This document shows, piece by piece, positions 4,900 through 40,321 of a stretch of 40,415 nt of DNA. Numbering within the stretch: the first letter of the stretch is position 1; each line of letters opens with the position of its first letter. The notes under the pieces were generated by a model, which searched no databases, was not told the origin of the DNA, and worked only from the letters and a program-made list of their open reading frames with translations. Source of the stretch: a virus; IMG/VR virus record IMGVR_UViG_3300006188_000005, positions 1-40,415 of that record; one strand, 5' to 3'. The translations under genes and the position numbers were made by a program.

Positions 4900-4900
4900 A

Positions 4901-9354: not shown

Positions 9355-9357
9355 GGC

Positions 9358-12700: not shown

Positions 12701-13547
12701 TGCCCTTGTCGGCGGTGCCGTACAGGCCGGAAAGCTGCTGCTCCATCTTCTCGAAGGCGCTGCCGGTGGCGAAGATGGATTTGACGCCTTCCTTGAGCGC
12801 CTCGAACGAGAAGAACGCGGCGATGGCCGCCAGCGGCTCGCGGAAGCGCTCCAGGATGCCGCGCGTCTGCTCCATCGCCTCGCCGGTTTCGCGTGCGCCC
12901 TGGGCGCCGGCATGGCCAGCCTCCTTGAGGTGTTCGCGCAGACGCTCGACGGCGGCGTCGTATTGCGCGGTTTCAGCGCGCTTCTTGCCGGCCTCGGCGG
13001 CCAGCTCGGCCTGCAGCTGCTGCTCGGCGGCGCGCTGGGCCTTGAGCTTGCCCACCATGTCGCGCAGCTCGGCGCTGGCCTGGGCGGTGCGGGCGGCCAC
13101 GTCCTTTTGCGCGGCGCCCACGCTGCGCAGGCTGATGCCCTGCCCTTCCAGCCCGGCTTTGAGGGTGCGCAACTGCGCCACTTCTTTCTGCTGCTCAGCC
13201 ACCAGCGCGCTGACGCTGGCGCGGGCCTTGTCCAGCTCGCGCTGCTGGGCCTTGGTGGGGTTGTCGGCCTGCTTGACGGCCTCGGCCAGCTCCACCACGC
13301 GGGCCTTGGCCGCAGTGATCTGGCGCTGGTAGTCCAGCACGGACAGGCCGATGTCGCGGTACTGCTGCACCGCACGTTCGGTCTTGTCGGAGCTGGCGAG
13401 CGTGTCGAGCAACGCGGCGGCGTGCGTGCGCGTTTCCTCGGACACGTCGCCCATGTTGGCAAGCATGCCGGCGGCTTGCTTGATGCCTTCGGTGCCCGCC
13501 GTCTCGAAGGCAAGGCGGATGACTTCCTCGAACTTGGCGTCAGCCAT
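9756..13547 (-). CDS. Tail tape measure protein (1263 aa)
   Basis: Very long alpha-helical A/Q/E/K-rich protein. An internal segment (GSAFEKMEQQLSGLYGTADKGKEAFEWLKQFTTGTPLKLDETM...GLIALTDAGVPVFDML) resembles the conserved tape-measure domain. Confidence 0.9.
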   Translation of the reverse strand: MADAKFEEVIRLAFETAGTEGIKQAAGMLANMGDVSEETRTHAAALLDTLASSDKTERAVQQYRDIGLSVLDYQRQITAAKARVVELAEAVKQADNPTKAQQRELDKARASVSALVAEQQKEVAQLRTLKAGLEGQGISLRSVGAAQKDVAARTAQASAELRDMVGKLKAQRAAEQQLQAELAAEAGKKRAETAQYDAAVERLREHLKEAGHAGAQGARETGEAMEQTRGILERFREPLAAIAAFFSFEALKEGVKSIFATGSAFEKMEQQLSGLYGTADKGKEAFEWLKQFTTGTPLKLDETMAAFVRLKKFGIDPMGGALQSLVDYNAKMGGNAEQLQAITDALTKAATKGQIDMRGLIALTDAGVPVFDMLAAASGKTADEIQNLAQQGLLGADAVAQLIKQMGKAGAGGAAKELEQLSAQWTVFTENIDDFRDRIARKGVMDYFRDQLRSLNDWIAQLAADGRLDQYAQRISNAITGIAEKVKQAGLFLAEHAGQIKKLVEVYAAFRIGRILVELGGFAGKLWSVGRSAIAGTEAVAGLSRGMTLFRGVLALGLSPLGLIVTGLGAFAVAANLAADAIVDYAVRHSKAMAQATKAEQEHIAVMGDLSAQWDRRAAALADFQDVQTQTAEQVAQMTAAERAAYKDRLAGYTEYSRAVWKEAQLRVAADSNATAEERRAVAALQKTFETAQAAAEDFQRGTALAARAAGAGLTAMAQQIAEAVRAARNNAAELKTKIDEQFADIAHRTPRQLGDIALAFADLTKDGDRSARDIRESFRQHLAALSGEDLHAFQTAANLAFVAAGTDARQAAAQMDDYLQTALGRLGVAVEQWGASATEAGQQNAELFRAVAENANASAATIEAAFNKALANTHTAADATAIGDAMQAAAAKGEVGLDAANRAAGALESRLRALKTAADPLGDSFAKLGIKSQRMLDDAADSARNSFNAIVQGARSGQASINDVRAAFQAYARVQMETVANAEPWKQAQVRSALEVQATTLNVTDSIDKMGLSGIDAGANVAKGAHEGADAMDRLAASTQKAAAAGEKLGSSGMDSDGKPKWHDIINNTRVALNGLSDAMLRQLSNLNALASSPRLWADQWNKVFADWQHQKDEYTEQLGVIEKQNAAYDEMTQRVAKLRTQYRYLNDDALRNMAMAQKTLEDNQKRAAEEAKAKHDEAVRKAKELYDAQNAAWRKEMGLDEKGQPAAAAPAAKPERIAIDLTVAASQTSGAVPAQLSGTDVQKVANEVVRQISIARSRSNR

Positions 13548-23196: not shown

Positions 23197-23813
23197 GCGG
23201 CTTCCTGCACGGGGAGCGCCGGCAGCGGCTTGGCGGCGGCGAGGTCGCGCATCACGTTGCGCAGCTCGTCGCTGAGCAGCTTATGCACGGCGGCGGGGTC
23301 GGTGACCGCGGCGAGCTGGGCGCTCAGGCGGTCGGGGATGGCGTCCAGCGCATCCATCGCCTGCCGCGACAGGCCGAAGATGGCGGCCTCGACTTCGGCA
23401 CGGCGCACCAGCGTGCCGGCTTTCTCGGCCAGCTCGAGTTCGGCCAGGCGCGCCTTGGCGATGCGCTCGCGGGTGGCGGCGGTCTTGTAGGCGCCGTCGC
23501 TGTCCGGCGTGCGCGGCTGCGTGTCGCCGCCTGCGGCTGCCGGAGCCGCGGCCGGGGCGCTGCCCTGCCCCGCATCTTGCGCAGCGCTCACAGGCGCGCT
23601 GGTGGCGGTGGCGGGCTTGCTGGTGCGGTCGCCGCCGCGGGCCGGATCGTCGGTGCGCTCCAGCAGCGCGATGGTCGCGGCCACGTCGACCAGCTTGCCG
23701 CTCGCGTCCAACACCAGCCGGCCCTGGTGTCCGAGCTTCGTGACGTAGGGCTGCGAGCAGCCGCGGATGCGGGCGAACTCCGAGCGGGTGACGAACTGCG
23801 AATCAGCGGTCAT
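23193..23813 (-). CDS. terS: Terminase small subunit (Nu1-like, N-terminal HTH)
   Basis: 206 aa starting MTADSQFVTRSEFARIRGCSQPYVTKLGHQGRL (winged-HTH style). It has an ATGA overlap with terL and an AAGGTGG RBS. Confidence 0.8.
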   Translation of the reverse strand: MTADSQFVTRSEFARIRGCSQPYVTKLGHQGRLVLDASGKLVDVAATIALLERTDDPARGGDRTSKPATATSAPVSAAQDAGQGSAPAAAPAAAGGDTQPRTPDSDGAYKTAATRERIAKARLAELELAEKAGTLVRRAEVEAAIFGLSRQAMDALDAIPDRLSAQLAAVTDPAAVHKLLSDELRNVMRDLAAAKPLPALPVQEAA

Positions 23814-28139: not shown

Positions 28140-28616
28140 ATGCCCAACAAGCCACGCAAGACCGCCGAAGCCCAGGCGCTTACCGCCGCGATCAACGCGG
28201 CCGAGATGAAGAAGGCAGCCGTGGCCGCCGCACTAGGCGTTTCACCCGGCCTTGTTTCGCAATGGGCCAGTGGCCGCACCCCCGTGCCGCCTGACACCGC
28301 CCCTCCACTGGCACAACTGCTCGGCCTTCCCGACCCCGGCACCATCAGCGCACGTTATCGCAAGGTGGCCGCCACGCAGACGGTCACGGTCACCAAGGCG
28401 ACGCAGCCTGCCGACCTCAAGAAACTGGAGCAGGCAGTGGTCGCCCTGGAGGCGGAAACCCATGAATTGCGCGCCGCACTACTGGTGATGGCGGCCGTTA
28501 TGAAACAACACCGTCCCGCCGAAGCGGCCGCTGCGGCTGCGGCGTTGCATCGACAGCTTCCGGCGAAACAACGAGAAACGGGTCTGTTGGCTCGCATCCT
28601 GAAAGTGCTCGAATGA
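28140..28616 (+). CDS. Prophage repressor (CI-like HTH protein without a recognisable S24 peptidase domain)
   Basis: MKKAAVAAALGVSPGLVSQWASGRTPV is an HTH closely paralleling the Cro-like HTH. The gene is divergently oriented. The C-terminal half is a coiled-coil-like region and has no Ser-Lys peptidase motif that I can see. Confidence 0.7.
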   Translation: MPNKPRKTAEAQALTAAINAAEMKKAAVAAALGVSPGLVSQWASGRTPVPPDTAPPLAQLLGLPDPGTISARYRKVAATQTVTVTKATQPADLKKLEQAVVALEAETHELRAALLVMAAVMKQHRPAEAAAAAAALHRQLPAKQRETGLLARILKVLE

Positions 28617-28779
28617 TCCCGCGCTCCCGCCGCAGCTCGCTCGCGCTCAACAGCGCCTGATGAATCAGCTCGTCTAGGTCCATATTTTCCCCCTTCCTGG
28701 ACCTCGTACTATCTTGCGCTGCCGCCTCAAATCGTGAGACGCGAGGCTGGATCTTGGTCGAATAGCCCGGAAGGATTCC

Positions 28780-29454
28780 ATGACCGAACAAACTATCACC
28801 TGCGGCAAATGCGGACACCAGCGCAATGCCGACGATGGCGAACCGGCGTGGTGCTGTCCATCTTGCGGCGTTGTCTACGCCAAGCTCGCCGCAACCATGC
28901 CGCCTCGCCCTACCCGCCAACGCGCCACCGCATCCGCACTCGACGTGCCCTTCACCGGAACGCGCAGGCAATGGGCCATCGTCGGGTTGATGCTCGCCAG
29001 CATTGCAACCATCGGCTGGCTGTGGTGGCGCGCCGATCAAAGCCGCGCCGCCGTGCAGCTTGCACAGGCCGAAGCGGAGGCCCACGACGCACCGCTGCGT
29101 GCCGCCCGGGCGGCGCAGACGCAATACCTCGACGATCGCGACGCACTCGCACCTCTCATCACCCAGTGGTCCGAAGAGGTACATAAAGCTGCCGCCACTC
29201 CACGCATGCTGCTCGCCTCGCGCATCGACCGTCTCGACGCGGTGATCGCCCGCATTCCGTCCGCACGCGTCCACGGCGAGTGCATGCGCACCGCACGCGA
29301 CATGTTCGCTGCCGCCGCCCGACAGCGCCGCGATGCTTTTCTTGCGTTTGCCGCACAAAACAGCACCAGTGAGGCCACAACTCGCGCATCAGCGCTTGAA
29401 CAACGTCTCGTCGAGCAGATGGCCGCCTGCAAACCTACCGATTCAAGCATGTGA
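28780..29454 (+). CDS. Zn-ribbon / single-TM protein co-oriented with the repressor; candidate superinfection-exclusion or abortive-infection factor
   Basis: The N-terminal CGKCGHQ...CCPSCG zinc ribbon is followed by a TM (WAIVGLMLASIATIGWLWW) and a 130-aa helical domain. A GGAAGGA RBS lies upstream. The position immediately downstream of the repressor matches the lambda rexAB/sieB slot. Confidence 0.7.
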   Translation: MTEQTITCGKCGHQRNADDGEPAWCCPSCGVVYAKLAATMPPRPTRQRATASALDVPFTGTRRQWAIVGLMLASIATIGWLWWRADQSRAAVQLAQAEAEAHDAPLRAARAAQTQYLDDRDALAPLITQWSEEVHKAAATPRMLLASRIDRLDAVIARIPSARVHGECMRTARDMFAAAARQRRDAFLAFAAQNSTSEATTRASALEQRLVEQMAACKPTDSSM

Positions 29455-29577
29455 CAATCGAAGGCGTCACTATCGATAGAAAATATCTATCAAAAAACAT
29501 ATAGTTAAACTATTGCAATACATGGATAGCTAAGCTATCGTTCTCCCCGAACCGCACTAGCGGCCAAGGAGAACGCC
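29455..29577. promoter_or_regulatory. Second operator/promoter region (PL-like) upstream of the plus-strand accessory operon
   Basis: An AT-rich gap contains GATAGCTAAGCTATC (29525-29539), GATAGAAAATATCTATC (29475-29491) and CTATCGATAG (29470-29479). These share GATAG/CTATC half-sites with the operator at 28065-28079. AAGGAG lies before the ATG at 29578. Confidence 0.7.
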
Positions 29578-29847
29578 ATGCTCGAACGCATCATCAGCCA
29601 CCCCGCCGCCCGCTTCGCGCGCTGCCGGGCCTGCGGCGCCGAGCCGCGCCACGTGCTCACCGTCGGGCGCAGCAGCCGGGAACCCGTGCAGTTTCTGGCC
29701 GCCAGCCACCGTCACGGGCTGGAATGCCGCTGCGGCGCACGCACCGCGCGCCACGACACCCTCGCCAACGCCGAGGCCGAGTGGGGCACCGACTACGCGC
29801 AGCTGGCGCTGCCGCTGCGCGTGCGTCGTCGGAGGGCCGCGGCATGA
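29578..29847 (+). CDS. Small Cys-rich protein, Lar-like (restriction alleviation family) candidate
   Basis: 89 aa with CRACGAEP...LECRCGARTARHDTLANAEAEWG. This follows the Lar-family pattern CxxCG...CxCG...eA...W as I remember it. It has a strong AAGGAG RBS and is the first gene of the operon. Confidence 0.6.
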   Translation: MLERIISHPAARFARCRACGAEPRHVLTVGRSSREPVQFLAASHRHGLECRCGARTARHDTLANAEAEWGTDYAQLALPLRVRRRRAAA

Positions 29848-30044
29848 AAACCGACAACCTCAAGCGCTGCATCGTGCGCGCAGCCACCGAGTGCGAGGAA
29901 TGCCTGCGTCTCGCCGATTTCGCCGAGCGCGAACCCAGCCTGTCCGGCGGCATGGCCGACAGCCTGCGCAAGATGGCCGCCTACCACAGCGACAACGCGT
30001 TCCTGTGGGCACGCCGCCTGCATGCCGTGGAGTCGCACGCATGA
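29844..30044 (+). CDS. Hypothetical small protein (66 aa)
   Basis: MKTDNLKRCIVRAATECEECLRLADFAEREPS... ATGA coupling at both ends. Confidence 0.6.
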   Translation: MKTDNLKRCIVRAATECEECLRLADFAEREPSLSGGMADSLRKMAAYHSDNAFLWARRLHAVESHA

Positions 30045-30232
30045 TCGCCGTCACCCAGGCCAGGCATGAAGCCACCGGCTGGCGCGGCTACCTGCTCACG
30101 GAAGCCGGCACCGTGCAGCGCCGCACGCTCAACCTCTACCCCACCGCCGAGAAGGCGCTGGAGGCCGTTGATCGCATGCACGGCATGCCCGCCACCGTTC
30201 CCGCCCCCATCTACTCGGAGCCCCGCGCATGA
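30041..30232 (+). CDS. Hypothetical small protein (63 aa)
   Basis: MIAVTQARHEATGWRGYLLTEAGTVQRRTLNLYPTAEKALEAVDRMHG... ATGA coupling at both ends. Confidence 0.6.
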   Translation: MIAVTQARHEATGWRGYLLTEAGTVQRRTLNLYPTAEKALEAVDRMHGMPATVPAPIYSEPRA

Positions 30233-30462
30233 ACGCAGTTACGCCGCTGCGCCCCGCGCGCAGCCTGCATGTTGCCCAGCTGCGCACCGACTTGTGCGAA
30301 GCCACCGCCCAAGCATGGCCCGAGCCCGACCGTTTCACCGAATTGCGCACCGTGCTCGGCCGCTGGTGGTGGGCATGGCTGCTCGCCTACATCGTGGTGT
30401 GCACCGCCGCGGCCGGCCTGCTCGGCGCCTACGTATGGCTCAGCGCAGGGCTGTCGGCATGA
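30229..30462 (+). CDS. Small membrane protein (77 aa)
   Basis: C-terminal TM WWWAWLLAYIVVCTAAAGLLGAYVWL. ATGA coupling at both ends. Confidence 0.6.
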   Translation: MNAVTPLRPARSLHVAQLRTDLCEATAQAWPEPDRFTELRTVLGRWWWAWLLAYIVVCTAAAGLLGAYVWLSAGLSA

Positions 30463-30659
30463 ACACCAAGCACCCCCTGCACGCCCACACCGTGCTGCAG
30501 CGCGCGGCCAATGAGCTCGACATGCACGGCGAACACAAACTGGCCAGCGAACTGAGCCAGGTGCGCCGCGCGAAGGGGTGGCGGCATGACCACCTGGTGC
30601 CCCGACCTCGACGGCAGCACCTCCCTGCGCGAGGAACTCGCCAACTGGCTGCGCGGTGA
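30459..30659 (+). CDS. Hypothetical small protein (66 aa), 3-prime end uncertain
   Basis: MNTKHPLHAHTVLQRAANELDMHGEHKLASELSQVRRAKGW... It has ATGA coupling at its start. The last 24 codons overlap the next ORF and are Arg/Pro-rich, which is out-of-frame-like. Confidence 0.45.
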   Translation: MNTKHPLHAHTVLQRAANELDMHGEHKLASELSQVRRAKGWRHDHLVPRPRRQHLPARGTRQLAAR

Positions 30660-30774
30660 TCCGCGAACCAGCGAACCCGACGTGCCAGAACCGCGGCTGC
30701 TGGAGCGCCATCGCGACCTTGTCGCCAGCAGCTACCAGCACGCGGCACCCACCCATCCCGACCTGGACGACTGA
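30586..30774 (+). CDS. Hypothetical small acidic protein (62 aa)
   Basis: MTTWCPDLDGSTSLREELANWLRGDPRTSEPDVPEPRLLERHRDLV. AAGGGGTGG lies upstream of the ATG. Confidence 0.55.
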   Translation: MTTWCPDLDGSTSLREELANWLRGDPRTSEPDVPEPRLLERHRDLVASSYQHAAPTHPDLDD

Positions 30775-30775
30775 C

Positions 30776-31132
30776 ATGCACGCCAACCGCATGGACTTTG
30801 CGCTGCCCAACAGCGCACCCGACATCCTCGCCAACGCCGCCGCCGCCATCGACCAGCGTGCCGCCGCGCGCGACCACGCCCAGGGCGAACGCAGCATGGC
30901 CCGCGCCGTGCACGCCTTCAACGCCATGTACGGCTGCGCGCTCAGCGAGGTGCAGGGCTGGCAGTTCATGGCCCTGCTCAAGATGGCGCGCTCCACCGGC
31001 GGCAAGCTGCACATCGACGACTACATCGACCAGTCCGCCTATGCCGCGCTGGCCGGTGAGGCCGCCGAGCGCGAAGGCCTGCGCGCCTGCATCGCCGCCA
31101 TCGACGGCGACGTCTCGCGGGCCGCCGCATGA
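30776..31132 (+). CDS. DUF6378-like phage protein (118 aa)
   Basis: RAAARDHAQGERSMARAVHAFNAMYGCALSEVQGWQFMALLKMARSTGGKLHIDDYIDQSAYAAL matches my memory of the DUF6378 pattern (..lKiaR....D...D.aGYAal). Confidence 0.65.
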   Translation: MHANRMDFALPNSAPDILANAAAAIDQRAAARDHAQGERSMARAVHAFNAMYGCALSEVQGWQFMALLKMARSTGGKLHIDDYIDQSAYAALAGEAAEREGLRACIAAIDGDVSRAAA

Positions 31133-31383
31133 GCATCTGCGCGCCAGCCGCCCGCTGGTGGGATCAGCCGGCCAGTGCCCGCGGCAGCTTCACCGCGAAA
31201 ACCCCGGCAGCAGGCCAAGCGGCCAACCGCGTTGCGGCGGCTTTCCACCATCAGCCGTGTTCCGCCGCCCAGACCTGCCACTGCCGCCGCCTCGGCCACC
31301 AGGCGGCACCGACCAGCGCCTTGCCCGTGTTTCCTCCCCTGGACGCGCAGGCCCGGCGAGAGCCGCCCCGCGCAAGGCGCTGA
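31129..31383 (+). CDS. Doubtful ORF (84 aa), low-complexity
   Basis: Only ATGA coupling to the upstream gene supports it. The composition (A/P/R/Q-rich) is not convincing, and 31133-31431 may be non-coding. Confidence 0.3.
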   Translation: MSICAPAARWWDQPASARGSFTAKTPAAGQAANRVAAAFHHQPCSAAQTCHCRRLGHQAAPTSALPVFPPLDAQARREPPRARR

Positions 31384-31431
31384 TCGGTCACCCCTCACCA
31401 CCGGCGCAGCGCGCCACCACCGGAGCCACCC

Positions 31432-31779
31432 ATGAGCAAGACCACCGACATAGCCCAGCTGTTCCACGACCTCGACGCCGGCATCTTCGCCCAACGCCTG
31501 GACGCCGCCATGCGCGACGTGGCGCTGGGCGTCACCACCACCGGCAAGAAAGGTAAGGTCACCATCACGCTGGATCTGGAGCGCATCGGCGACAGCAGCC
31601 AGGTCACCTGCACGCACGCCATCAAGTTCATCAAGCCCACCAACAAGGGCAAGGCGAGCGAAGAGGCCACCACCAAGACCCCGCTGCACGTCGGCACCGG
31701 CGGCGTGCTCAGCCTGTTCCCGGAATCGCAGCCGGACATGTTCAAGGCCACGGCCGGCAACGCTGCCGCCGAAACCTGA
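31432..31779 (+). CDS. Hypothetical phage protein (115 aa)
   Basis: MSKTTDIAQLFHDLDAGIFAQRLDAAMRDVALGVTTTGKKGKVTITLDLERIG... It has balanced composition, and GGAG lies 8 nt upstream. Confidence 0.7.
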   Translation: MSKTTDIAQLFHDLDAGIFAQRLDAAMRDVALGVTTTGKKGKVTITLDLERIGDSSQVTCTHAIKFIKPTNKGKASEEATTKTPLHVGTGGVLSLFPESQPDMFKATAGNAAAET

Positions 31780-32020
31780 TCACCACCTGATTCACCGGAC
31801 GCACCCGAGATAGGGGCCGCGAAGGGAGAGCCATACCGGCGGATGCGTGCACAGGCGCAATCCGCATGAGCTTTAGCCGGTTGCCTGTGTTCTCTGGCCC
31901 CGCCACGACGACGACCCGCCAACACGGCTACAGGCGGGAGGAAGCACAAGGCCGGCGCTGCCGAGATTGAGGGCGCCGGCTACCGCAGCCATACACCACC
32001 ACCTCCGGAAACCGCCCACC

Positions 32021-32860
32021 ATGGATCAGTCCGCCATCGTCACCCTCAGCCGCCTCGCCGTCGAAGCCGAGGAGGCCAACCGCCTCGACACTGATACGCC
32101 CGCCGTCATCCTCACCAACCGCGACGGCACGCAGCACATCGAATCCATCGAGCACCTGCAGCCCGGCCGCAGCCGCTACCGCGGCAAGTACACCAGCAAC
32201 GCGCTCGCCGACTTCGCCGGCTACGTCACGCGCACCCACGAAAACGGCCTAGCGCAGGGCCAGCCGCAGGGTTTCATCGACCCCGCCAACATGGCATGCG
32301 CCGTGTTCTTCAACCTCGGCGACGGCGAGCATGCCGGCCATGCCGACCATACCGCCAGCCTCAAGCTCAAGCCCACCGCCGCCTACGCCGCGCTGCGCGC
32401 TGCGCTGGCCAAGGCCCACGACCAGCGCAGCCTGCACGACTTCATCGAAGACTGGCGCGACGCCATCGTACCCATGACCGCCGGCGAGCCCGACACCACG
32501 CGCCGCATCCCCAGCGTGCTCGCCGCCGTGCGCAGCATCACCATCGACGAAGCCCGCAGCAGCACGCACGACGACCGCGACTTCGGCGCCACCCGCAGCA
32601 CCATGGAAAGCGTGGACGCCAAGAGCGCGCACACGCTGCCCAGCGGCCTGGTGTTCCGCTGCGCGCCTTATGAGGGCCTGCCCGGCCGCGAGTTCCGCCT
32701 GCGTCTCGGCGTTTCCACAGGCGCCGACAAGCTGGTGCTGGTGCTGCGCATGCAGCAGGCCGAAGCCGTCGAAGAAGCCATCGCCGCCGACTTCCGCGCC
32801 GCGCTGGCCGACAAGCTCAGCACCGCCTGCAGCCTGGTGCTGGGCACCTTCACCCCCTGA
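32021..32860 (+). CDS. YfdQ-like (DUF2303) prophage protein
   Basis: 279 aa. The length and style (…RYRGKYTSNALADFAGYV…FFNLGDGEHAGHADHTA…FRLRLGV…) fit the DUF2303/YfdQ family as I remember it. Confidence 0.6.
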   Translation: MDQSAIVTLSRLAVEAEEANRLDTDTPAVILTNRDGTQHIESIEHLQPGRSRYRGKYTSNALADFAGYVTRTHENGLAQGQPQGFIDPANMACAVFFNLGDGEHAGHADHTASLKLKPTAAYAALRAALAKAHDQRSLHDFIEDWRDAIVPMTAGEPDTTRRIPSVLAAVRSITIDEARSSTHDDRDFGATRSTMESVDAKSAHTLPSGLVFRCAPYEGLPGREFRLRLGVSTGADKLVLVLRMQQAEAVEEAIAADFRAALADKLSTACSLVLGTFTP

Positions 32861-32921
32861 GAGCGTCGTGCCTCCCCGGCCGGGTGGGCAATCCCGGCAA
32901 CTTTCCCTCCGCGAGCCATCC

Positions 32922-33227
32922 ATGACCACCTTGCGCCCCATCGGCCACCTGGCCGGCAACCTCACCGTCACCGCCGTCACGCTTGGCGCGCGCGTGCGCA
33001 ACGGCCACGGCAATGCCGTGTATCTGTTGTGGCACACCGACGACGGTTGTCTCTGGTTTCTTCCGGCCGCGCACCCGTTGGCCACCAGCGTGGTTCGCAG
33101 CTCGCCCGCGCAGATCATCAACCGTTACCGCAACCGCGAGGGCTTCGGCTGGCGCCTGATCCTTGAGGATCTGCAGCAAACCAGCGCCGCCTACGCCAGC
33201 GCCGCCATGCGCGAGGCCGTGGCATGA
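32922..33227 (+). CDS. Hypothetical protein (101 aa)
   Basis: MTTLRPIGHLAGNLTVTAVTLGARVRNGHGNAVYLLWHTDDGCLWFLPAAHPL... Its stop overlaps the next ATG. Confidence 0.6.
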   Translation: MTTLRPIGHLAGNLTVTAVTLGARVRNGHGNAVYLLWHTDDGCLWFLPAAHPLATSVVRSSPAQIINRYRNREGFGWRLILEDLQQTSAAYASAAMREAVA

Positions 33228-33490
33228 ACATCCCGCGCAACACGCCTGAGCAACTCCACCGCCGTGCCCAGCTCGCCACGCTGGCGGCCGCGAGCGCGGT
33301 GAACGCCAAGTCGCACATCGAGAAAGCCGTGCTCAACGCAGAACACGGCCGGCTTGACCTCGCCGTGCTCAACGACCTGCGCGAGTGCATCCGCACCATC
33401 GATCGCGCCGTGCGCCACGCCGAACTCTGCCGCCAGCGCCTGCTGCGCAAGGCGGATCGCGCCACTCATAACCTGCCCAACGAGGATTGA
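33224..33490 (+). CDS. Hypothetical helical protein (88 aa)
   Basis: MNIPRNTPEQLHRRAQLATLAAASAVNAKSHIEKAVLNAEHGRLDLAVLNDL... ATGA coupling. Confidence 0.6.
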   Translation: MNIPRNTPEQLHRRAQLATLAAASAVNAKSHIEKAVLNAEHGRLDLAVLNDLRECIRTIDRAVRHAELCRQRLLRKADRATHNLPNED

Positions 33491-33492
33491 CC

Positions 33493-34023
33493 ATGCAACC
33501 CACCTTGAACATCCGCACCAAGACGCTGCACCTGCACCTGGCGCCCGGCAGCGAGTTGCCGCCCGCGGTGCTGGCCACGGCCGAGAGGATCGCGCCTGCA
33601 GTCGGCGCATCCGAACGGTTCAGCCTCACCATCAGGCACGGCGCCGAGCTCGTCACCGACCACAAGACTGGCCTGATGTGGCCCGTGTATGAAAGCGAGC
33701 AGTCGATGGACTACGACGCGCTGGAGAAGCATGTCACCGGGCTGCGCCTGGGCGGCTTCGCCGATTGGCGTACGCCCACCGTCGAAGAGCGCGAATCCAT
33801 CCGCGACCTGTCGCGCTACAACCCCGCGCTGTTCGAACCGCTCAAGTCCCGCAGCAACGGCTGGGAATGGACCTGCACGCCCTGCGCCTGGTCCAAGGAC
33901 GACGCGGGTGTGCCCGCTGCCTTCTGGCAGGTCTACGGCCTCTACGGCCACCTGGACGACGGCCACCGCGACGACAGGGCCTTCGCGCGGCCGTGTCGGT
34001 TCGTCGCGCGCGCCGGTCAGTGA
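33493..34023 (+). CDS. DGR target protein 1: DUF1566 / C-type-lectin-fold protein with C-terminal variable region
   Basis: 176 aa with HKTGLMWPV...GGFADWRTPTVEERESI...WEWTCTPCAW (DUF1566 hallmarks). The last 39 codons are VR1. GAGGA lies 6 nt before the ATG. No signal peptide is visible. Confidence 0.88.
   Translation: MQPTLNIRTKTLHLHLAPGSELPPAVLATAERIAPAVGASERFSLTIRHGAELVTDHKTGLMWPVYESEQSMDYDALEKHVTGLRLGGFADWRTPTVEERESIRDLSRYNPALFEPLKSRSNGWEWTCTPCAWSKDDAGVPAAFWQVYGLYGHLDDGHRDDRAFARPCRFVARAGQ
33901..34017 (+). repeat. DGR variable region VR1 (117 bp)
   Basis: It aligns gap-free with the TR (35048-35164). By manual alignment there are 12 differences, and every one is at a TR adenine (for example AAC to TAC/CTC/CAC/GAC). 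The flanking 33 bp and 39 bp are identical. Confidence 0.92.
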
Positions 34024-34064
34024 TCGGCCTTTTGTCACCCATCCCTTCCCACGGAGCGAATCCC

Positions 34065-34532
34065 ATGGACTTTGCCAAGCCCAACATCATCCGCATCAGC
34101 GATGCCGGCGACCACATGCCCATCGACCACGCCGGCAAGCATGCCGCGATCCTCTACCCCGACTTCGGCATCCAGTTTGCCGTGGGCGCCAAGGGGTTCG
34201 ACAAGGCAGCCAACTACGACAGCACCATCAAGCGCGCGGCCGACCTCACGCATGCCGGCGAATCCGGCTGGATCTTGGCGCCGGACCTGCGCCTGCAGCT
34301 GCTCACCATCGACTACTCGCGCCTCAATCCCGCCGCCGATCCGGCGCTATTCCCGGATGCGCTTTCGGCCTGGTACTGGACCTCGCACGGCTGCGCCTGG
34401 TCGATGGACGACGCGGGTGTGCCCGCTGCCTTCTGGCAGGTCCGCGGCCTCGACGGCAACCTGGACAGCGGCGACCGCAGCTACGAGGCCTTCGCGCGGC
34501 CGTGTCGGTTCGTCGCGCGCGCCGGTCAGTGA
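34065..34532 (+). CDS. DGR target protein 2: second DUF1566-like protein with C-terminal variable region
   Basis: 155 aa (MDFAKPNIIRISDAGDHMPIDHAGKHAAILYPDFG...GWILAPDLRLQLL...WYWTSHGCAW). The N-terminal part is different from target 1 but the C-terminal scaffold is the same. GGAG RBS upstream. No signal peptide. Confidence 0.88.
   Translation: MDFAKPNIIRISDAGDHMPIDHAGKHAAILYPDFGIQFAVGAKGFDKAANYDSTIKRAADLTHAGESGWILAPDLRLQLLTIDYSRLNPAADPALFPDALSAWYWTSHGCAWSMDDAGVPAAFWQVRGLDGNLDSGDRSYEAFARPCRFVARAGQ
34410..34526 (+). repeat. DGR variable region VR2 (117 bp)
   Basis: It aligns gap-free with the TR. There are 12 differences, all at TR adenines, and the substitutions differ from those in VR1 (for example codon 1 is CGC versus TAC). 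Confidence 0.92.
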
Positions 34533-34562
34533 TCGGCCCTTTGTCCCACTGAGCACCCCCTG

Positions 34563-34997
34563 ATGGCCTTCAACCTTCCACCCGTCGTCAAGCTCGCCGA
34601 GCGGCTCGCCTGCGACATCGAGGAAGCGGTGACGCGGTTCGCCCGCCGCCACCGCCACACCTTCGGTGCGCGGCTCCGCAATGCCGCGTTCGACGTTCTC
34701 CTCACGGCCGATGCCGCCGCGCGGCGCCCAGTGGAGCGCGCTCAGCTACTCACGCAGCTGCGCGATGCGGTGGACAGGTTGAAGGCCACCATGCAGGCGG
34801 GGCAGCGGCTTCGACAGTTCGCCAGCTTCGGCCAGTTCGAGGGCCTGATGGTCACGGCCCACGACCTCGGCAGACAGGTCGGTGCATGGCACCGGCAGTT
34901 TCACCCTCAAGGCCAGAATGCCGCGGCGCAAGCGCCCCGGCAGCGTGCCAAGACACTGAGTACCTACGCCGCCTCGATGCGTGAGGCCAATCCATGA
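34563..34997 (+). CDS. avd: DGR accessory variability determinant (Avd-like four-helix-bundle protein)
   Basis: 144 aa, basic and helical (…RFARRHRHTFGARLRNAAFDVLL…LRDAVDRLKATMQAGQRLRQF…). It is positioned between the target genes and TR/RT, as in canonical DGRs. Confidence 0.8.
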   Translation: MAFNLPPVVKLAERLACDIEEAVTRFARRHRHTFGARLRNAAFDVLLTADAAARRPVERAQLLTQLRDAVDRLKATMQAGQRLRQFASFGQFEGLMVTAHDLGRQVGAWHRQFHPQGQNAAAQAPRQRAKTLSTYAASMREANP

Positions 34998-36352
34998 CGA
35001 AGCCGCGCTACCCACAGGGATGTTCGGCCAGGTCGCAAGTGCGTGGGGACGCGGGTGTGCCCGCTGCCTTCTGGCAGGTCAACGGCAACAACGGCAACCT
35101 GAACAACGACAACCGCAACAACAAGGCCTTCGCGCGGCCGTGTCGGTTCGTCGCGCGCGCCGGTGAGTGTCAGGGTGAAAAGGTATCCGTGCGCGCGCTC
35201 TACGACGCCTGGCGCGCGGCACGGCGCAACAAGAAACCCAGTGAGAACCAGCTGGCGTTCGAACTGCACTGGATGGACCGCCTGCTGGAGACTCAGCAGC
35301 AATTGAACGCCGGCACGTGGCAGCCGAGACCCACCACATGCTTCGTCGCTCAGCGACCCAAGGCGCGCGAGATCCATGCGCCGGACTTCGCCGACCGCGT
35401 GGTGCACCACTGGCTGGTGCCCCAGCTCGACGCCATCTACGAGCCCACGTTCATCCACGACTCCTATTCCAACCGCCGCGGCAAGGGCACGCACAAGGCC
35501 GTGGCGCGGCTGCGCCAGTTCGTGCACCAGGTGCACAGCGGCCAGGGCAATGGCTGGTATCTGCAGCTCGACGTGGCGAACTTCTTTCCCAGCATCCACC
35601 GGCCAACGCTGTGGGCCATGCTCAAGCCGCGGCTCATCCGCGCCGGCCTGTCGCCCATCGCGCTGCGCACCACGCACACCCTGCTGCGCCAATCCGTGCA
35701 CGCGCAGGGCATCCTCTACCGCTGCACCCGCGAGGAACACGCCCGCGTGCCGCTCCACAAGCGGCTGGAGAACGCGCCCGCCGGCTGCGGCCTGCCCATC
35801 GGGAACCTCCCCAGCCAGTTCCTCGCCAACGTCTACCTCGACGTGCTCGACCAATTCGTCAAGCACGTGCTCAAGGCCAAGCGCTACCTGCGCTTCGTCG
35901 ATGACTTCGTGTTGGTGCACCACGACCGCGCCCAGCTGGAGCGCTGGCAACACCAGATCGAACAGTTCCTCGCCGACCGCCTGCGCCTCAAGCTGAAAGA
36001 CGACGTGCGCCTGCGGCCGCTGTCCGCCGGCATCGACTTCCTCGGCTACGTGGTGTTCCCCACCCATACCCGCGTGCGCAAGCGCGTGGTGCATCACGCC
36101 GAGGAACGCCTGCAGGCCTGGCATGCCGCCCACGCCGCGCGCGGCGGCTTCCGCGGCACGCCCGAGGATTTCCAGCAGCTTGACGCCACCTGGGCCAGCT
36201 ACCAGGGCCACTTTGCCCACGCCAACAGTTGGCGCCTGCAACAACGCTTCCTGCGCCGCCGCCCCTGGTTGGCGGCAATGACCCATTCGCGCCGCCGCTT
36301 CCATCACAGCCTCAGCGGCCGGCGCCTCACCGTGCGAGTAAACCATGTGTGA
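34994..36352 (+). CDS. DGR reverse transcriptase
   Basis: RT motifs are present: YLQLDVANFFPSI, GLPIGNLPSQFLANVYL (the DGR-typical I/LGxxxSQ), RYLRFVDDFVLV (YxDD-box variant) and IDFLGYVV. The frame is open from the ATG at 34994 (GAGG RBS, ATGA overlap with avd) and contains the TR. The conserved RT core begins after the TR, and an alternative GTG start is at 35189. Confidence 0.92.
   Translation: MTKPRYPQGCSARSQVRGDAGVPAAFWQVNGNNGNLNNDNRNNKAFARPCRFVARAGECQGEKVSVRALYDAWRAARRNKKPSENQLAFELHWMDRLLETQQQLNAGTWQPRPTTCFVAQRPKAREIHAPDFADRVVHHWLVPQLDAIYEPTFIHDSYSNRRGKGTHKAVARLRQFVHQVHSGQGNGWYLQLDVANFFPSIHRPTLWAMLKPRLIRAGLSPIALRTTHTLLRQSVHAQGILYRCTREEHARVPLHKRLENAPAGCGLPIGNLPSQFLANVYLDVLDQFVKHVLKAKRYLRFVDDFVLVHHDRAQLERWQHQIEQFLADRLRLKLKDDVRLRPLSAGIDFLGYVVFPTHTRVRKRVVHHAEERLQAWHAAHAARGGFRGTPEDFQQLDATWASYQGHFAHANSWRLQQRFLRRRPWLAAMTHSRRRFHHSLSGRRLTVRVNHV
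35048..35164 (+). repeat. DGR template repeat (TR), adenine-rich (nine AAC codons in the central 45 nt)
   Basis: GACGCGGGTGTGCCCGCTGCCTTCTGGCAGGTC-AACGGCAACAACGGCAACCTGAACAACGACAACCGCAACAACAAG-GCCTTCGCGCGGCCGTGTCGGTTCGTCGCGCGCGCCGGT. The flanks are identical to both VRs, and the centre has 21 adenines. Confidence 0.92.
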
Positions 36353-36650
36353 CCTCGAAACCACTCTTTCGCTTCTTGCCAGGCATGGCCGGCCACGGCT
36401 CAGCCAGATGGACGATGGCGGCTGGTATTGCTACGTCGACATGCACGTCGCCGCCAAGGGCGCTGCATTCAAGGTGGCCAGCGACTTCAACTGCCCGGGC
36501 GCGCTTTCTGCCGCTGATCAATGCCTCGATCGCATCCACGCGATGCTGAATAGCTTCGATGTCAACATGTCCGTGAATCACGACCGCGGCGTGATCGGCA
36601 TGCATGCCGCCAACCAAACCGGCATGGCGAAGGCTATTACCCATGGCTGA
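36345..36650 (+). CDS. Small protein (101 aa); its C-terminus is a diverged copy of the methyltransferase N-terminal segment
   Basis: MCDLETTLSLLARHGRPRLSQMDDGGWYCYVDMHVAAKG...SVNHDRGVIGMHAANQT. The last part parallels AVNHDHDALGMHAANHP of the next gene. It overlaps the RT stop and the MTase start. Confidence 0.55.
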   Translation: MCDLETTLSLLARHGRPRLSQMDDGGWYCYVDMHVAAKGAAFKVASDFNCPGALSAADQCLDRIHAMLNSFDVNMSVNHDRGVIGMHAANQTGMAKAITHG

Positions 36651-38565
36651 CGGCTCCCGCCAACACGGCTTCAACTTCGCCCACAAGCCGCTCGTCAGTG
36701 CCTTGCGCCCAGACGAAATCGTGGTGGATTTCTTCGCTGGTGGCGGCGGTGCCAGCGAGGCGCTACGCCAGGCACTTGGCCGCGACCCGGACGTGGCCGT
36801 GAACCACGACCACGACGCGCTCGGCATGCATGCCGCCAACCACCCCTTCACCCGGCACATGGAGGCCGACGTGTGGACGGTGGACATCTTGCGCGAGGTC
36901 GCAGGGCGACCGGTGGGCTGGTATCACGCCAGTCCGGACTGCACGCATTTCAGCCAGGCCAAGGGCGGCCAGCCGCGCGACCGCGCCACGCGCTCGCTCA
37001 GCTGGGTGGTGCCCAAGGTCGCCGGCACGCTCGCGCGCCGCGGGCTGGCCCCGCGCATCATCAGCCTGGAGAACGTCCGCCAGATTCTCGGCTGGTGCCC
37101 GTTGGTGGCGAAGCGCGACAAGGCCACCGGCCGCGTGGTCACGCTGGATATGGTGCCGCTGATCCACCCGGAAACCGGCCACGTGGTCAAGCGCGGCGGC
37201 AAGGTGTTGCTGATCAACCGCATCGCCGGCCCGGGCGAGCAGGTGCCGGTGCGCAACCAGTTCCTGGTGCCGGACAAGCGCCGCATGGGCGAGACGTGGC
37301 GCAAGTTCGTGGCCGTGCTGCGCGCGCTGGGCTACGTGGTGGAATGGCGCCTGCTGAAAGCCTGCGACTACGGCGCCGGCACCAGCCGCGAACGGCTGTT
37401 CCTGATTGCGCGCCGCGACGGCGAGCCCATCCGCTGGCCGGAGCCGACGCATGGCCCGGGCCTCGCGCAGCCCTACATCACCGCCGCCGACTGTATCGAC
37501 TGGAGCATCACCTGCCCGTCGATCTTCACCCGCAAAAAGCCGCTGGCCGACGCCACGCTGCGCCGGATCGCGAAGGGCGTGCAGCGCTACGTGATCGGCG
37601 CGGCCTCGCCGTTCATCGTGCAGTGCGCGAATGCTTCGGCGAACGGAGTGGCGAGCACTTCCGAGCCGCTGGGCACGGTGACGGGGTGGCCGAAGGGAGG
37701 CAGCCATGCGGTGGTGGCGCCGACGCTGGTGCAGACCGGGTACGGCGAACGCGCCGGCCAGTCGCCGCGCTCGCTGGATCTGCAGCAGCCACTCGGCACG
37801 GCCGTGGGCGGCGGCGTGAAGCACGCGCTGGCCGCCGCGCACCTGGTCAAGTTTCGCGGCGACAGCACCGGCGCCGCCGCCACCGACCCCATGCCTACCA
37901 TCACCAGCGGCGCAGGCGCGGCGCGTCCGGCTGGCGCGGCCCACGCCATGGGCATCCTCACCGCCTTCCTCGAACAAGCCCACGGCGGCGGCGAGCACGG
38001 CAACCCGGCCCGCGCGCGCGGCGCCGATGAGCCGGTGAGCACGATCAGCACCACCGGCAGCCAGCAGCGGATCGTGACGGCGCACCTTACGGCCTTCGGC
38101 CAGAACGCCAAGGGCACCGATCCACGCGAGCCGATGCAGACCGCACTGGGCGGCGCTGCGCGCTTCGGCGTCGTGGAATGCACCCTCAGCCCGGAGCACG
38201 AAGCCGGCGCGCTGCGTGTGGCTGCGCTGCTCGTCAACTACTACGGCAACGGACAGCCCCGCGACATGCGCGCGCCGCTCGATACCGTGACCACCCGCGA
38301 CCGCCTCGCGCTGGTTACCGTCACTCTGCATGGCACGCCCTATGTGATCGTCGACATCGGCCTGCGTATGCTCAAGCCGCGCGAGCTGTACCGCGCCCAG
38401 GGCTTCCCGGCCGACTACATCATCGACCGCACCGCCAGCGGCAAGCCACTCACCATCAGCGCCGCCGTGCGCATGGTCGGCAATAGCGTCAGCCCGCCGC
38501 CGCTCGCGGCCCTTGCCCGCGCCAACCTCGAACCGGCCCGCGAACCGGAACGGATCGCCGCATGA
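36643..38565 (+). CDS. Orphan DNA (cytosine-5) methyltransferase (640 aa)
   Basis: Motif I is VDFFAGGGGAS. The motif IV region is ASPDCTHFSQAKG. ENV is in ISLENV. Motif VIII region is GAGTSRERLFLIARR. Motifs IX-X are RMLKPRELYRAQGFPADY...MVGNSVSPP. A long G/A-rich segment separates the two halves. No restriction endonuclease gene is nearby. Confidence 0.88.
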   Translation: MADGSRQHGFNFAHKPLVSALRPDEIVVDFFAGGGGASEALRQALGRDPDVAVNHDHDALGMHAANHPFTRHMEADVWTVDILREVAGRPVGWYHASPDCTHFSQAKGGQPRDRATRSLSWVVPKVAGTLARRGLAPRIISLENVRQILGWCPLVAKRDKATGRVVTLDMVPLIHPETGHVVKRGGKVLLINRIAGPGEQVPVRNQFLVPDKRRMGETWRKFVAVLRALGYVVEWRLLKACDYGAGTSRERLFLIARRDGEPIRWPEPTHGPGLAQPYITAADCIDWSITCPSIFTRKKPLADATLRRIAKGVQRYVIGAASPFIVQCANASANGVASTSEPLGTVTGWPKGGSHAVVAPTLVQTGYGERAGQSPRSLDLQQPLGTAVGGGVKHALAAAHLVKFRGDSTGAAATDPMPTITSGAGAARPAGAAHAMGILTAFLEQAHGGGEHGNPARARGADEPVSTISTTGSQQRIVTAHLTAFGQNAKGTDPREPMQTALGGAARFGVVECTLSPEHEAGALRVAALLVNYYGNGQPRDMRAPLDTVTTRDRLALVTVTLHGTPYVIVDIGLRMLKPRELYRAQGFPADYIIDRTASGKPLTISAAVRMVGNSVSPPPLAALARANLEPAREPERIAA

Positions 38566-38888
38566 ACCGCCCCGCCATCGACACCACCGAAACCCTGGAC
38601 GTGAAAGGCGCCGCCGCCCTCATGCGCTGCGGTGTGGAAGCCGTGGAGCAGATCATCGACACCGGCGCGCTGCCCGCCCTGCAGATCAACCAGAAACGCA
38701 CCGTGCTGCTGCGCGTCGACGTGCTCGCCTACATCGCCCAGCACGCCCGCGAGCAGGCCGAGCAGCGCCGCAAGCAACAAGGCGCCAAGGGCCGCAGCAC
38801 CGCCGCCCCTATCAAGAGTCGACAGGCGAGGCCGCGTCAGGTGCTGCCGGACCTGAGCCGCTACGAATCCAGGTGCGACAGGCCGTGA
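38562..38888 (+). CDS. xis: Excisionase / HTH_17-type DNA-binding protein
   Basis: ETLDVKGAAALMRCGVEAVEQIIDTGALPALQINQKRTVLLRVDVLAYI is the typical excisionase-family winged HTH. It lies next to int and has ATGA coupling to the MTase. Confidence 0.75.
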   Translation: MNRPAIDTTETLDVKGAAALMRCGVEAVEQIIDTGALPALQINQKRTVLLRVDVLAYIAQHAREQAEQRRKQQGAKGRSTAAPIKSRQARPRQVLPDLSRYESRCDRP

Positions 38889-39178
38889 AGGCAAGCCGAG
38901 AACTGCAAAACCTTCGCCGCCGCGTCGATCGCGCGCGCGACTTCCCCATGAATACCTGCCCAGCCAGCCGCCATGTGCATCTTATGGCGCTGGCCTTGGC
39001 CGAGGGCGAGGATTACCCGATGCTGCGGGAAGAACCGCAACACTGCGCTGCATCGTTGCTCAGCGTGCTGGAATCGCTGTGGAAGGCTCGCACTGCCCTT
39101 ACCACATCCCCTCGGCTAGGTTCGTCCCGCGGAGGTTCGCATAGCGCCTCAGCGAAGCCAGATTCTTGTGCCCGGTGA
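38885..39178 (+). CDS. Possible small ORF (97 aa, GTG start) convergent with and overlapping the int 3-prime end
   Basis: GTGA overlap with the xis stop. (V)KASRELQNLRRRVDRARDFPMNTCPASRHVHLMALALAEGEDYPMLREEP... looks protein-like up to about 39100 and then runs antisense to int. Support is weak. Confidence 0.3.
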   Translation: MKASRELQNLRRRVDRARDFPMNTCPASRHVHLMALALAEGEDYPMLREEPQHCAASLLSVLESLWKARTALTTSPRLGSSRGGSHSASAKPDSCAR

Positions 39179-40220
39179 TCTTCGCAATCTGCATGTCCGT
39201 GAGCCGCGTGCGCTCATAGATGCGCGCCGTGGCTTCGTGCCGCAGGTCATGGAAGTGCAGCCCGTTGCACTCGGCCGCCTCGAAGATCCGCGCGAACTGC
39301 CGCGATAGCTGAGCCGTGCAGCGCCGCAACTCGGCGCGTGTCCGCTCGCCACTCCACCACGGGAACACCTGCTCGTCAGGCGCACGGTCGTGCAGGTAGA
39401 CCTTGAGCAGCTTGCGCAACACCGTGGTGATCGGCACCTGCCGCTTGTCGCCATTCTTGGTCTTGTCGAGGAAGATCGTTCGCCGCTCCAGGTCGATCTG
39501 GGCGACGGTGAGCGTGTACATCTCGCTCATACGCATGGCCGATTCCAGCGCCATGTCGAACAGCAACACCAACGCCGGCCCGTGCCGAAGCTCCAGTGCC
39601 CGCTGCCGCCCTTCCGCCTTGGCGCCGGCCAGCACCGCACGGATCGCCGGTTCCTCGGCCGCCTCCAGTCGGCGATCGCGCTCGTCGTCGCCCTTCGCCT
39701 CGCCCTCCACCAGCGCCACCTGCGTCACGTCGTCCGGCGTGTACGTCGAATACCCCTTGCGCAGCAGCCGCAGCGGGTTCATCGGTATGTCGCCCTTCGC
39801 GGCCAACCAGTCCAGCGCGCGGGCCAGCGCTCCGACGTAGTGGCGGATTGTGCTCGGCGCCAGGTTCTGCTCGCGCTTCATCGCCGTCACCCACGCCTGA
39901 GCCCAAGTGAACGTGAGGCCCGGCAGCGCCAACTTGCGCGGCAGCCTCAGCTCCACCACGTCGAGCAACGCCGTGTCGTCGGCGGAAATGTGCTGCGCGC
40001 TCTTGTATCGCGTCAGCGCATCGCTCAACAGGTTCGTCGCCGAGGGTTTCGTGCCGAACTCTTCCGGCACCACTCCGCGCGCCAGCAGCGCCTCCAGCCG
40101 GCGCACGTATTCGTCGCCCTCGGCCTCATCGTCAAAACTCACATAGACCGGCTTGGGCAACACCCCTGCGCGCCGTATCGTGTAGTGCCAGGTAGACCCG
40201 CGCCGCCGCTTCGTCGCCAT
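39099..40220 (-). CDS. int: Tyrosine recombinase / phage integrase
   Basis: 373 aa from MATKRRRGSTWHYTIRR. Catalytic signatures are present (…AMRMSEMYTL…, HFHDLRHEATARI, GHKNLASLRRYANL). It is adjacent to the attR/tRNA copy. Confidence 0.93.
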   Translation of the reverse strand: MATKRRRGSTWHYTIRRAGVLPKPVYVSFDDEAEGDEYVRRLEALLARGVVPEEFGTKPSATNLLSDALTRYKSAQHISADDTALLDVVELRLPRKLALPGLTFTWAQAWVTAMKREQNLAPSTIRHYVGALARALDWLAAKGDIPMNPLRLLRKGYSTYTPDDVTQVALVEGEAKGDDERDRRLEAAEEPAIRAVLAGAKAEGRQRALELRHGPALVLLFDMALESAMRMSEMYTLTVAQIDLERRTIFLDKTKNGDKRQVPITTVLRKLLKVYLHDRAPDEQVFPWWSGERTRAELRRCTAQLSRQFARIFEAAECNGLHFHDLRHEATARIYERTRLTDMQIAKITGHKNLASLRRYANLRGTNLAEGMW

Positions 40221-40227
40221 CCGTGAA

Positions 40228-40288
40228 AACTCGCGTAATCGGAAACGACGCAAGCTTACGCGAGTTTGCCACTCAAAAACGAGTGGCA
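40228..40288 (-). promoter_or_regulatory. Two adjacent stem-loops immediately upstream of the int start codon
   Basis: AACTCGCGTAA (40228-40238) pairs with TTACGCGAGTT (40256-40266), an 11-bp stem. TGCCACTC (40267-40274) pairs with GAGTGGCA (40281-40288). On the int strand the 11-bp stem ends in GAGTTTTCACGG directly before the ATG. Confidence 0.5.
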
Positions 40289-40321
40289 AACCCTCGATTT
40301 CTCCCCTTTTCCACCGAATCT

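Follow-up and report, generated by a model that had tools for sequence, protein, structure and literature searches.

The viral record IMGVR_UViG_3300006188_000005 of IMG/VR, a stretch of 40,415 nucleotides that was analysed whole and is called the window below, carries on its + strand at 33493-36352 a complete diversity-generating retroelement (DGR) composed of two target genes (T1 and T2), avd, a 117-nt template repeat (TR) and rt, which codes for a reverse transcriptase. We hold it as nearly certain that this DGR is complete and canonical, with sequence variation that fits recent activity, that it lies in the lambda-PL-like early-left arm of a siphovirus-type Rhodanobacter prophage, that its targets are two paralogous leaderless lectins and that the layout is conserved. 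Our preferred reading of the targets is that T1 and T2 are free, soluble, hypervariable binding modules made together with the early genes, rather than the receptor-binding protein of the tail. To the whole statement, the DGR anatomy plus a non-virion soluble binder role for T1 and T2, we assign a probability of about 0.45.

Repeat structure and recent activity of the DGR

The element is a complete canonical DGR with the core avd-TR-rt. The variable repeats (VRs) at the 3' ends of T1 and T2 form a three-copy direct repeat with the TR (Table 1). Over the 117-nt core VR1 has 12 mismatches to the TR and VR2 has 11, all of them (12/12 and 11/11) at TR adenines. The 3' 39 nt of the repeat are identical in VR1, VR2 and the TR, and this block occurs exactly three times in the window (none expected by chance). 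The position directly 3' of the block is G in the TR (35165) and C in both VRs, which marks the initiation of mutagenic homing sites IMH* (TR) and IMH (VRs). Both VRs end 6 nt ahead of the stop codons of their targets. Just beyond the IMH of VR1 a GC-rich hairpin, GCCGGTCAGTGATCGGC, overlaps the T1 stop codon; the same 17-nt sequence is repeated after VR2 at 34521-34537, and the TR lacks it, the equivalent place reading GCCGGTGAGTGTCAGGG. Of the TR codons that hold these adenines ten are AAC, one is GAC and one is AAG; two more adenines, unvaried, are at codons 137 and 146. The 11 VR1 codons that differ from the TR are those of T1 residues 148, 150, 151, 153, 155-158 and 160-162.

The gene for Avd, a four-helix bundle protein, is placed between VR2 and the TR. 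The translated reverse transcriptase (RT) contains IGNLPSQ, an instance of the [I/L/V]GxxxSQ motif, and the catalytic box FVDD; in pairwise comparison it is 29-40% identical to the RTs of phages BPP-1, Magia and LPPA56. The rt frame is also open from an ATG at 34994 that overlaps the avd stop codon (ATGA) and reads through the TR (34994-36352), and gene callers gave 451-aa RTs that overlap avd in two related loci (L127 and L128). The TR may fall within the 5' part of the rt open reading frame (ORF), where it would code for an N-rich pseudo-VR peptide.

Metagenomic proteins with a backbone identical or nearly identical to that of T1 or T2 differ only at adenine-encoded residues. One T2 variant (cluster member P0013) has D130N in VR2, again at an adenine-encoded position, and in an 85%-identical orthologue divergence is likewise highest at the VR residues. 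Judged from these sequences, variants that share a backbone and differ in the VR would fit recent DGR activity. Two further proteins (P0142 and P0143) are T1 outside the VR and carry a VR peptide that is T2's RGLDGNLDSGDRSYE or one residue off. Homing of one cDNA into both VRs or gene conversion between VR1 and VR2 are possible origins of these two variants, which could also be assembly chimeras over the 150-nt repeat. The retrohoming cycle is the standard one and is well supported here: the TR RNA would be reverse-transcribed with misincorporation at adenines, the cDNA would replace VR1 and VR2, and about 11 codons near the C-terminus of T1 and of T2 would be re-randomised.

The target proteins

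An earlier note on this DNA had located two targets of 176 and 155 aa in 33493-34532, coordinates that are correct, and had called them small, leaderless C-type lectin (CLec) proteins of the DUF1566 type, a description borne out by the matches to Lcl_C and by a heuristic sequence check for export signals. The Lcl_C bit score of T1 (53.2) is above the cut-off of 34.9 and that of T2 (29) is below it; T2 falls within the family profile. BLASTP aligns the two proteins at 44% identity over 131 residues (E=2e-30), and they are therefore paralogous single-domain proteins. The unrelated N-terminal halves ascribed to them by the earlier note were a misreading: T1 and T2 share the same single domain, and T1 has an N-terminal extension of about 45-50 residues beyond T2. 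Good ribosome-binding sites precede both genes (GAGGA 6 nt 5' of T1 and GGAG 8 nt 5' of T2).

Searches of Pfam, PHROG and NCBIfam found no further domain in T1 or T2 besides Lcl_C, and no prism or sandwich domain like those of Mtd, the BPP-1 target, or other docking domain. A PADLOC search with T1, T2 and the small neighbouring ORFs gave no match, and the T1/T2 locus has no effector domain (NTPase, protease, kinase or nuclease) either fused to the CLec domain or in its operon. The heuristic check detected no signal peptide, lipobox, twin-arginine (TAT, RR) motif or transmembrane segment in either protein. The hydrophobicity of their N-termini is low (maximum Kyte-Doolittle value over 15 residues 1.1-1.2), and the first cysteine is residue 128 of T1 and residue 110 of T2.

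The earlier note had proposed that both targets be modelled and the VR residues located on the binding face. For T1 the outcome was a confident CLec model, with the variable residues predicted to lie in its last strands and loops. A word-indexed protein search returned 13 and then 29 relatives of T1, and AlphaFold2 with the 13-sequence alignment gave a predicted local distance difference test (pLDDT) score of only 47. Widening the query with targets translated from the IMG/VR loci described below brought the relatives to 262, and a 120-sequence alignment then gave a model with a pLDDT of 90.7. The fold of T1, as modelled, is that of a CLec domain. Its best fold match in the PDB is the C-terminal domain of Legionella Lcl (8q4e; Foldseek E=4e-4, TM-score 0.62, root-mean-square deviation 2.8 A over 115 columns, 20% identity), with classical C-type lectin-like domains ranking next. 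The small T1 profile gave no match when PDB sequences were searched; with the widened profile 8q4e was the sole match at E<0.01. Among viral models the nearest belongs to an uncultured caudovirus and is a DUF1566 protein of 115 aa. The variable stretch of the T1 model, residues 148-162, runs over two C-terminal strands with their loops.

Position in the prophage

The targets lie in a + strand arm of early and accessory genes that starts with a helix-turn-helix regulator and ends with a C5 methylase gene and the excisionase-like gene; the integrase is beyond it, on the - strand (Table 1). Genes are tightly packed on this strand between 33.2 and 38.9 kb, and the gaps around the targets (-4, 2, 41 and 30 nt) would fit a single transcription unit. 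The - strand is a siphovirus-type lytic/late arm. It has genes for a Cro/YdaS-like protein, primase and helicase, for both terminase subunits (small and large), the portal and a protease-capsid fusion, for a major tail protein with an Ig domain, a tape measure protein of 1263 aa and the other tail proteins of Table 1, and for a spanin. A protein identical to T1 is annotated in the metagenome-assembled genome of Rhodanobacter sp. 68-29.

Table 1. Features of the DGR and of the surrounding prophage (positions in the window).
Feature	Position	Strand	Description
T1, 176 aa	33493-34023	+	Pfam Lcl_C (PF07603) E=4.5e-14, residues 53-169
VR1	33901-34017	+	3' end of T1; three-copy direct repeat with VR2 and TR
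Hairpin GCCGGTCAGTGATCGGC	34012-34028	+	GC-rich; overlaps T1 stop codon, just beyond IMH
T2, 155 aa	34065-34532	+	single DUF1566-type CLec domain; Pfam Lcl_C E=1.5e-6, under gathering score
VR2	34410-34526	+	3' end of T2; same three-copy direct repeat
avd, 144 aa	34563-34997	+	Pfam bAvd E=3e-5 and NF033474 E=6e-8 (both under curated cut-offs); phrog_3206 'Avd protein of DGR' E=1e-12
TR	35048-35164	+	117 nt, 23 adenines; N-rich coding VNGNNGNLNNDNRNNK
DGR rt, 387 aa	35189-36352	+	from GTG 35189; RVT_1 E=8e-16; phrog_1423 E=2.5e-98
Upstream arm genes	28140-33490	+	helix-turn-helix (HTH) regulator, small ORFs, DUF6378, phrog_204, DUF2303/YfdQ-like, 101-aa ORF, 88-aa ORF coupled to T1
Downstream arm genes	36604-38888	+	C5 cytosine DNA methyltransferase (653 aa), then HTH_17 excisionase-like gene
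Tyrosine integrase, prophage end	39099-40289	-	Phage_integrase E=2.4e-23
Tail module	3007-13547	-	tape measure, 1180-aa phrog_6128 protein, low-GC 304-aa protein, 637-aa tail protein; PHROG matches

That the targets belong to the early/accessory arm and not to a tail operon, as the earlier note had it, holds, and so does its contrast with BPP-1, in which mtd follows the tail-fibre gene. The distance of 15-30 kb that it gave between the targets and the structural module is right for the linear prophage map; on the excised circle the two are probably nearer 10 kb apart, on opposite strands, because the int/att end adjoins the lysis/tail end. The structural module was also said to contain no VR. 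A search of the whole window for a fourth copy of the IMH block found none, and with the 39-nt block confined to VR1, VR2 and the TR the structural module, tail genes included, is therefore without a VR; a VR in the tail genes was rejected on this ground. A third target in the window was likewise rejected, there being no extra IMH block and, by tblastn over the whole window, no DUF1566-like ORF outside 33.5-34.5 kb.

Conservation of the layout

We scanned IMG/VR with the T1 family profile and viewed each of the resulting 80 loci for 10 kb on either side of the match. This comparison of related prophages, also proposed by the earlier note, revealed a conserved layout: in at least 41 loci homologues of avd and rt lie directly 3' of one to four small DUF1566 ORFs. 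The number of VRs in the 41 loci is most often two (31 loci), with one in three loci, three in six and four in one, and VR/TR mismatches fall at adenines, apart from the IMH G/C difference and occasional single mismatches elsewhere. Primase, helicase and TerL genes lie upstream on the opposite strand. An additional target, where there is one, is found 4-5 kb upstream in the same arm. The targets are coupled to the early/accessory arm in all of the approximately 45 loci examined and are beside tail genes in none. No signal-like N-terminus is present in any of about 90 related targets, which are 105-215 aa long; those of the T2 type are the bare domain (about 141-155 aa), and the N-termini of T1-type and T2-type targets are well conserved inside sublineages. 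The 88-aa ORF upstream of T1 has homologues in just two related loci.

Of the 41 viral loci with avd and rt, 11 have a C5 methylase gene 3' of rt, as do a 46-kb JGI contig that has the same genome plan and loci L127 and L128; this suggests a conserved pairing of DGR and methylase. In a cultured Rhodanobacter hydrolyticus (GCA_044904645.1) the prophage arm runs from an S24 repressor through a remote target, DUF1351, YqaJ, RecT, a 171-aa ORF and a T1-like gene to avd, rt and a C5 methylase, and then by way of AlpA to the host genes csrA-alaS-recX-recA. This arm, with its S24 repressor and YqaJ-RecT genes, has the layout of the lambda early-left operon. P. aeruginosa phage LPPA56 has two tandem targets (204 and 220 aa) with 14 adenine mismatches each, located between DUF2303 and the integrase. 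Synteny is kept down to about 40% RT identity among phages of Rhodanobacter, Burkholderia and Pseudomonas. From these sequence comparisons the layout is that of a conserved and widespread early-arm class in proteobacterial temperate phages, with cultured representatives. The earlier note had raised the option that a self-contained cassette had inserted into this prophage. The GC content of the cassette equals that of the phage, and the cassette holds the same place in at least 41 viral contigs and in cultured phages and prophages; this option is therefore unsupported.

T1 orthologues are also present in the early region of other prophages (L003:3325-3837, 49% identical; L004:10001-10555, 57% identical; also L005 and L006), where no avd or rt was visible within the 13-16 kb examined. 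The 49%-identical orthologue includes the N-terminal extension and belongs to the early region of a phage whose portal is of the P22 type and whose terminase is different. Just 3' of the VR of L004 the sequence, CAGTGTCAGGGTG, is like the TR flank of the window and unlike its VR flank, a resemblance that hints at past VR/TR recombination or DGR loss. A tblastn search with T1 of 50,697 phage records gave no match, DNA matches there coming from the RT alone. A scan of genome contigs gave only distant DUF1566 proteins (Nitrospirota and Desulfobacterota) with no homologous RT or avd nearby, and these were not used.

Function of the targets

The genomic context favours a role for the targets outside the virion. 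The hypervariable cytoplasmic binders directed at host defence or host factors that the earlier note suggested would fit this context and are plausible. T1 and T2 are in an early arm, where they are partly translationally coupled to upstream accessory genes and have recombination, methylase and excision genes as neighbours. Related loci have up to four paralogues, and T2-type proteins consist of the bare domain with no docking domain. The T1 orthologue in the phage with a P22-type portal and different terminase, and the T1 orthologues that stay intact at this place in the absence of a visible avd or rt, point the same way. As we read this context, T1 and T2 would act through stoichiometric binding in the infected, induced or lysogenic cell, which is the simplest mechanism because there is neither an effector domain nor a PADLOC match. 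The likeliest setting would be conflict between phage and host or between phages, in which the targets might mask or sequester a variable component of host defence or a protein of an incoming competitor.

Several points weigh against the soluble binder reading. Co-transcription of the targets with early genes is deduced solely from gene packing, and the missing signal peptide is exactly what would be expected of a virion protein too. T1 and T2 have no effector domain, and comparison of related loci found no partner gene conserved across the class. To our knowledge the sole experimentally understood phage DGR, that of BPP-1, diversifies a receptor-binding protein. Those Lcl_C/DUF1566 proteins that have been characterised are either extracellular adhesins or lipoproteins of the cell surface (PMC5758913), and host range in the Bacuni phages correlates with differences in the VR of a 253-aa DUF1566 target (PMC8143477).

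The BPP-1 precedent and the Bacuni correlation both favour the best placed of the alternatives, a serious rival that we nevertheless consider less likely: that the virion carries T1 and T2 as adhesins or auxiliary receptor-binding proteins whose genes simply lie outside the late operon, with the DGR serving host-range switching as in BPP-1. Synthesis in the cytoplasm would explain the missing leader, and the proteins would dock on the tail tip, the fibres or the capsid through an invariant face or the N-terminal segment; the N-termini conserved within T1-type and T2-type sublineages could be the docking motifs. DGR-encoding viruses have a broader host association (Roux et al., PMC8144416), the distance of only about 10 kb to the tail genes on the circular genome would suit such a role, and one related locus (L068) has a J-like gene on the opposite strand, about 8 kb downstream of rt. 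Against this stand the tight coupling of the targets to the early/accessory arm in about 45 loci, never beside tail genes, and the lack of an Mtd-like or other docking domain. Up to four paralogues, one of them 4-5 kb further upstream among early genes, and the T1 orthologue of a phage whose head module is different also weigh against virion adhesins. Even in Bacuni F1, where the 253-aa target is at the end of the tail module, a second DUF1566 target is encoded in the replication module, with a C5 methylase gene as its neighbour, showing that such genes occur outside tail modules.

We think it improbable that T1 and T2 are lysogenic-conversion or release factors which reach the outside of the cytoplasm by lysis or unrecognised export and bind cell-surface glycans, masking receptors or debris and thereby saving progeny from loss or excluding rival phages. 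The DUF1566/Lcl_C domains of known function do bind extracellular ligands (PMC5758913) and the T1 model matches Lcl; the arm is moreover co-oriented with a repressor-type gene, which makes low-level expression in lysogens conceivable. T1, T2 and about 90 relatives, however, have no signal peptide, lipobox, TAT motif or transmembrane segment, no holin-independent export system is encoded nearby, and the xis gene further along the arm speaks against constitutive read-through in lysogens. Least probable of all is that the DGR was recently acquired, or is selfish and decaying, and does nothing for the phage at present: the orphan T1 orthologues of L003 and L004-L006 show that DGR loss happens in the family, but here all parts are intact, mismatches are at adenines only, variation is restricted to the VR on identical backbones, the GC content is that of the phage and synteny persists down to about 40% RT identity in Rhodanobacter, Burkholderia and Pseudomonas phages.

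Returning to the soluble binder reading, we would extend it to the class only tentatively, the odds being somewhat against so broad a claim. In this extension a widespread class of temperate-phage DGRs would leave the virion alone and keep one to four tiny cytoplasmic 'antibody-like' lectin binders, expressed early beside anti-restriction functions and directed at variable host defences or competing phages, as a form of anticipatory counter-defence or exclusion by hypermutation.

Relation to known DGRs

The BPP-1 element (mtd-avd-TR-brt) shares with the present one a C-terminal VR in a CLec target, avd, TR, rt, adenine-specific mismatches, IMH and IMH* and a hairpin after the VR; both phages are temperate and have the cassette near the att end. 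The targets differ. Mtd is a 381-aa tail-fibre-tip protein whose gene comes immediately after that of the tail fibre, where the late operon ends, whereas here two single-domain targets of 155-176 aa are in the opposite, early arm and the RT is about 29% identical. T1 and T2 thus have neither the late/tail-operon position of an Mtd-type target nor its length of about 380 aa with N-terminal prism and sandwich domains.

The VR lies in a DUF1566-type CLec domain, as in target category d of Wu et al. (DUF1566/DUF823/Fib_succ_major, CLec2 VRs), which includes Legionella LdtA. LdtA, a lipoprotein of the cell surface, has an export signal, whereas T1 and T2 are products of phage early-arm genes in which the heuristic check found none of the signals (signal peptide, lipobox or TAT motif) of surface display of the LdtA/TvpA type. 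Legionella pneumophila Lcl is the closest solved fold, but it is a secreted collagen-like adhesin and is not diversified. About half of category d consists of short DUF1566-only targets (Wu et al. 2018, PMC5758913), only five of 92 phage DGR targets are Mtd-like, the remainder being of unknown function (Benler et al., PMC6199706), and the genome note on Magia already reported short-ORF targets in this position (PMC7883833). To call the present case an unusual use of a prophage DGR, as the earlier note did, was thus an overstatement.

Magia (B. cenocepacia) and LPPA56 have the same plan, in which an early arm leads to one or more small lectin-fold targets, avd, rt and integrase. They are distant relatives (RT 37-40% identical), their targets can be aligned only near the VR, and Magia is described as a myophage. 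Bacteroides phage Bacuni F1 (L130), from a different host phylum, also has two small DUF1566 targets. The 253-aa target whose VR differences track host range (PMC8143477) is adjacent to rt; the remote one (22548-23222) lies in the replication module between the genes for DNA polymerase A and a C5 methylase, which, in an unrelated phage, echoes the context here. Intracellular roles have been proposed for CLec targets that lack membrane or secretion signals in bacteria of the Candidate Phyla Radiation (CPR), in DPANN archaea and in DGR-diversified conflict sensors of multicellular bacteria (PMC8144416, PMC10907252, PMC10053308). Those targets and sensors are cellular genes and the sensors are fused to effector or signalling domains, whereas T1 and T2 are phage-encoded and binder-only.

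The locus is thus a DGR with short DUF1566 targets, a kind already known, and what is added is the recognition of a conserved early-arm class, of which no description or test as such was found in the literature searched. The class is easily recognised, its targets being beside recombination, methylase and excision genes. The default view, drawn from BPP-1 and from machine-learning predictors that class most viral DGR targets as tail structural proteins (Roux et al., PMC8144416), is that phage DGR targets tune host attachment. Most of these targets have no known function. If the early-arm targets are non-virion binders, DGRs gain a second role in phages, in intracellular conflict, and small, single-domain, naturally randomisable binders become available as scaffolds. 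If they are virion adhesins instead, receptor-binding proteins can be encoded in and diversified from the early arm. Their function is directly testable because there are cultured representatives: LPPA56, Magia and the Rhodanobacter hydrolyticus prophage.

Neighbouring genes

The C5 methyltransferase gene downstream of rt (36604-38565, + strand) codes for an unusually long protein (653 aa), with a Pfam match that falls into three separate stretches. Rfam and tRNA scans of the window were empty. The small ORF at 29578-29847 (+ strand) encodes a Cys-rich protein (CxxC ... CxC) that the earlier note had listed as a Lar-like member of the operon, an identity we rejected after finding no match in Pfam, PHROG, NCBIfam or PADLOC. 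Just past the HTH regulator a 224-aa ORF (28780-29454, + strand) begins with a CxxC...CxxC zinc ribbon and has a hydrophobic segment and no family match; its position is reminiscent of rex/sie-type genes of immunity regions. On the - strand, the 856-aa ORF at 16371-18941 matches both phrog_133 and phrog_4523 and is the protease-capsid fusion (head maturation protease plus major capsid protein). Between the 1180-aa and 637-aa tail proteins, the 304-aa gene (4901-5815, - strand) lies in a stretch with a GC content of 0.52, that of the phage being about 0.68. This gene probably encodes a receptor-binding protein or tail fibre and was exchanged recently, and it is hence the more obvious determinant of host range in this phage.

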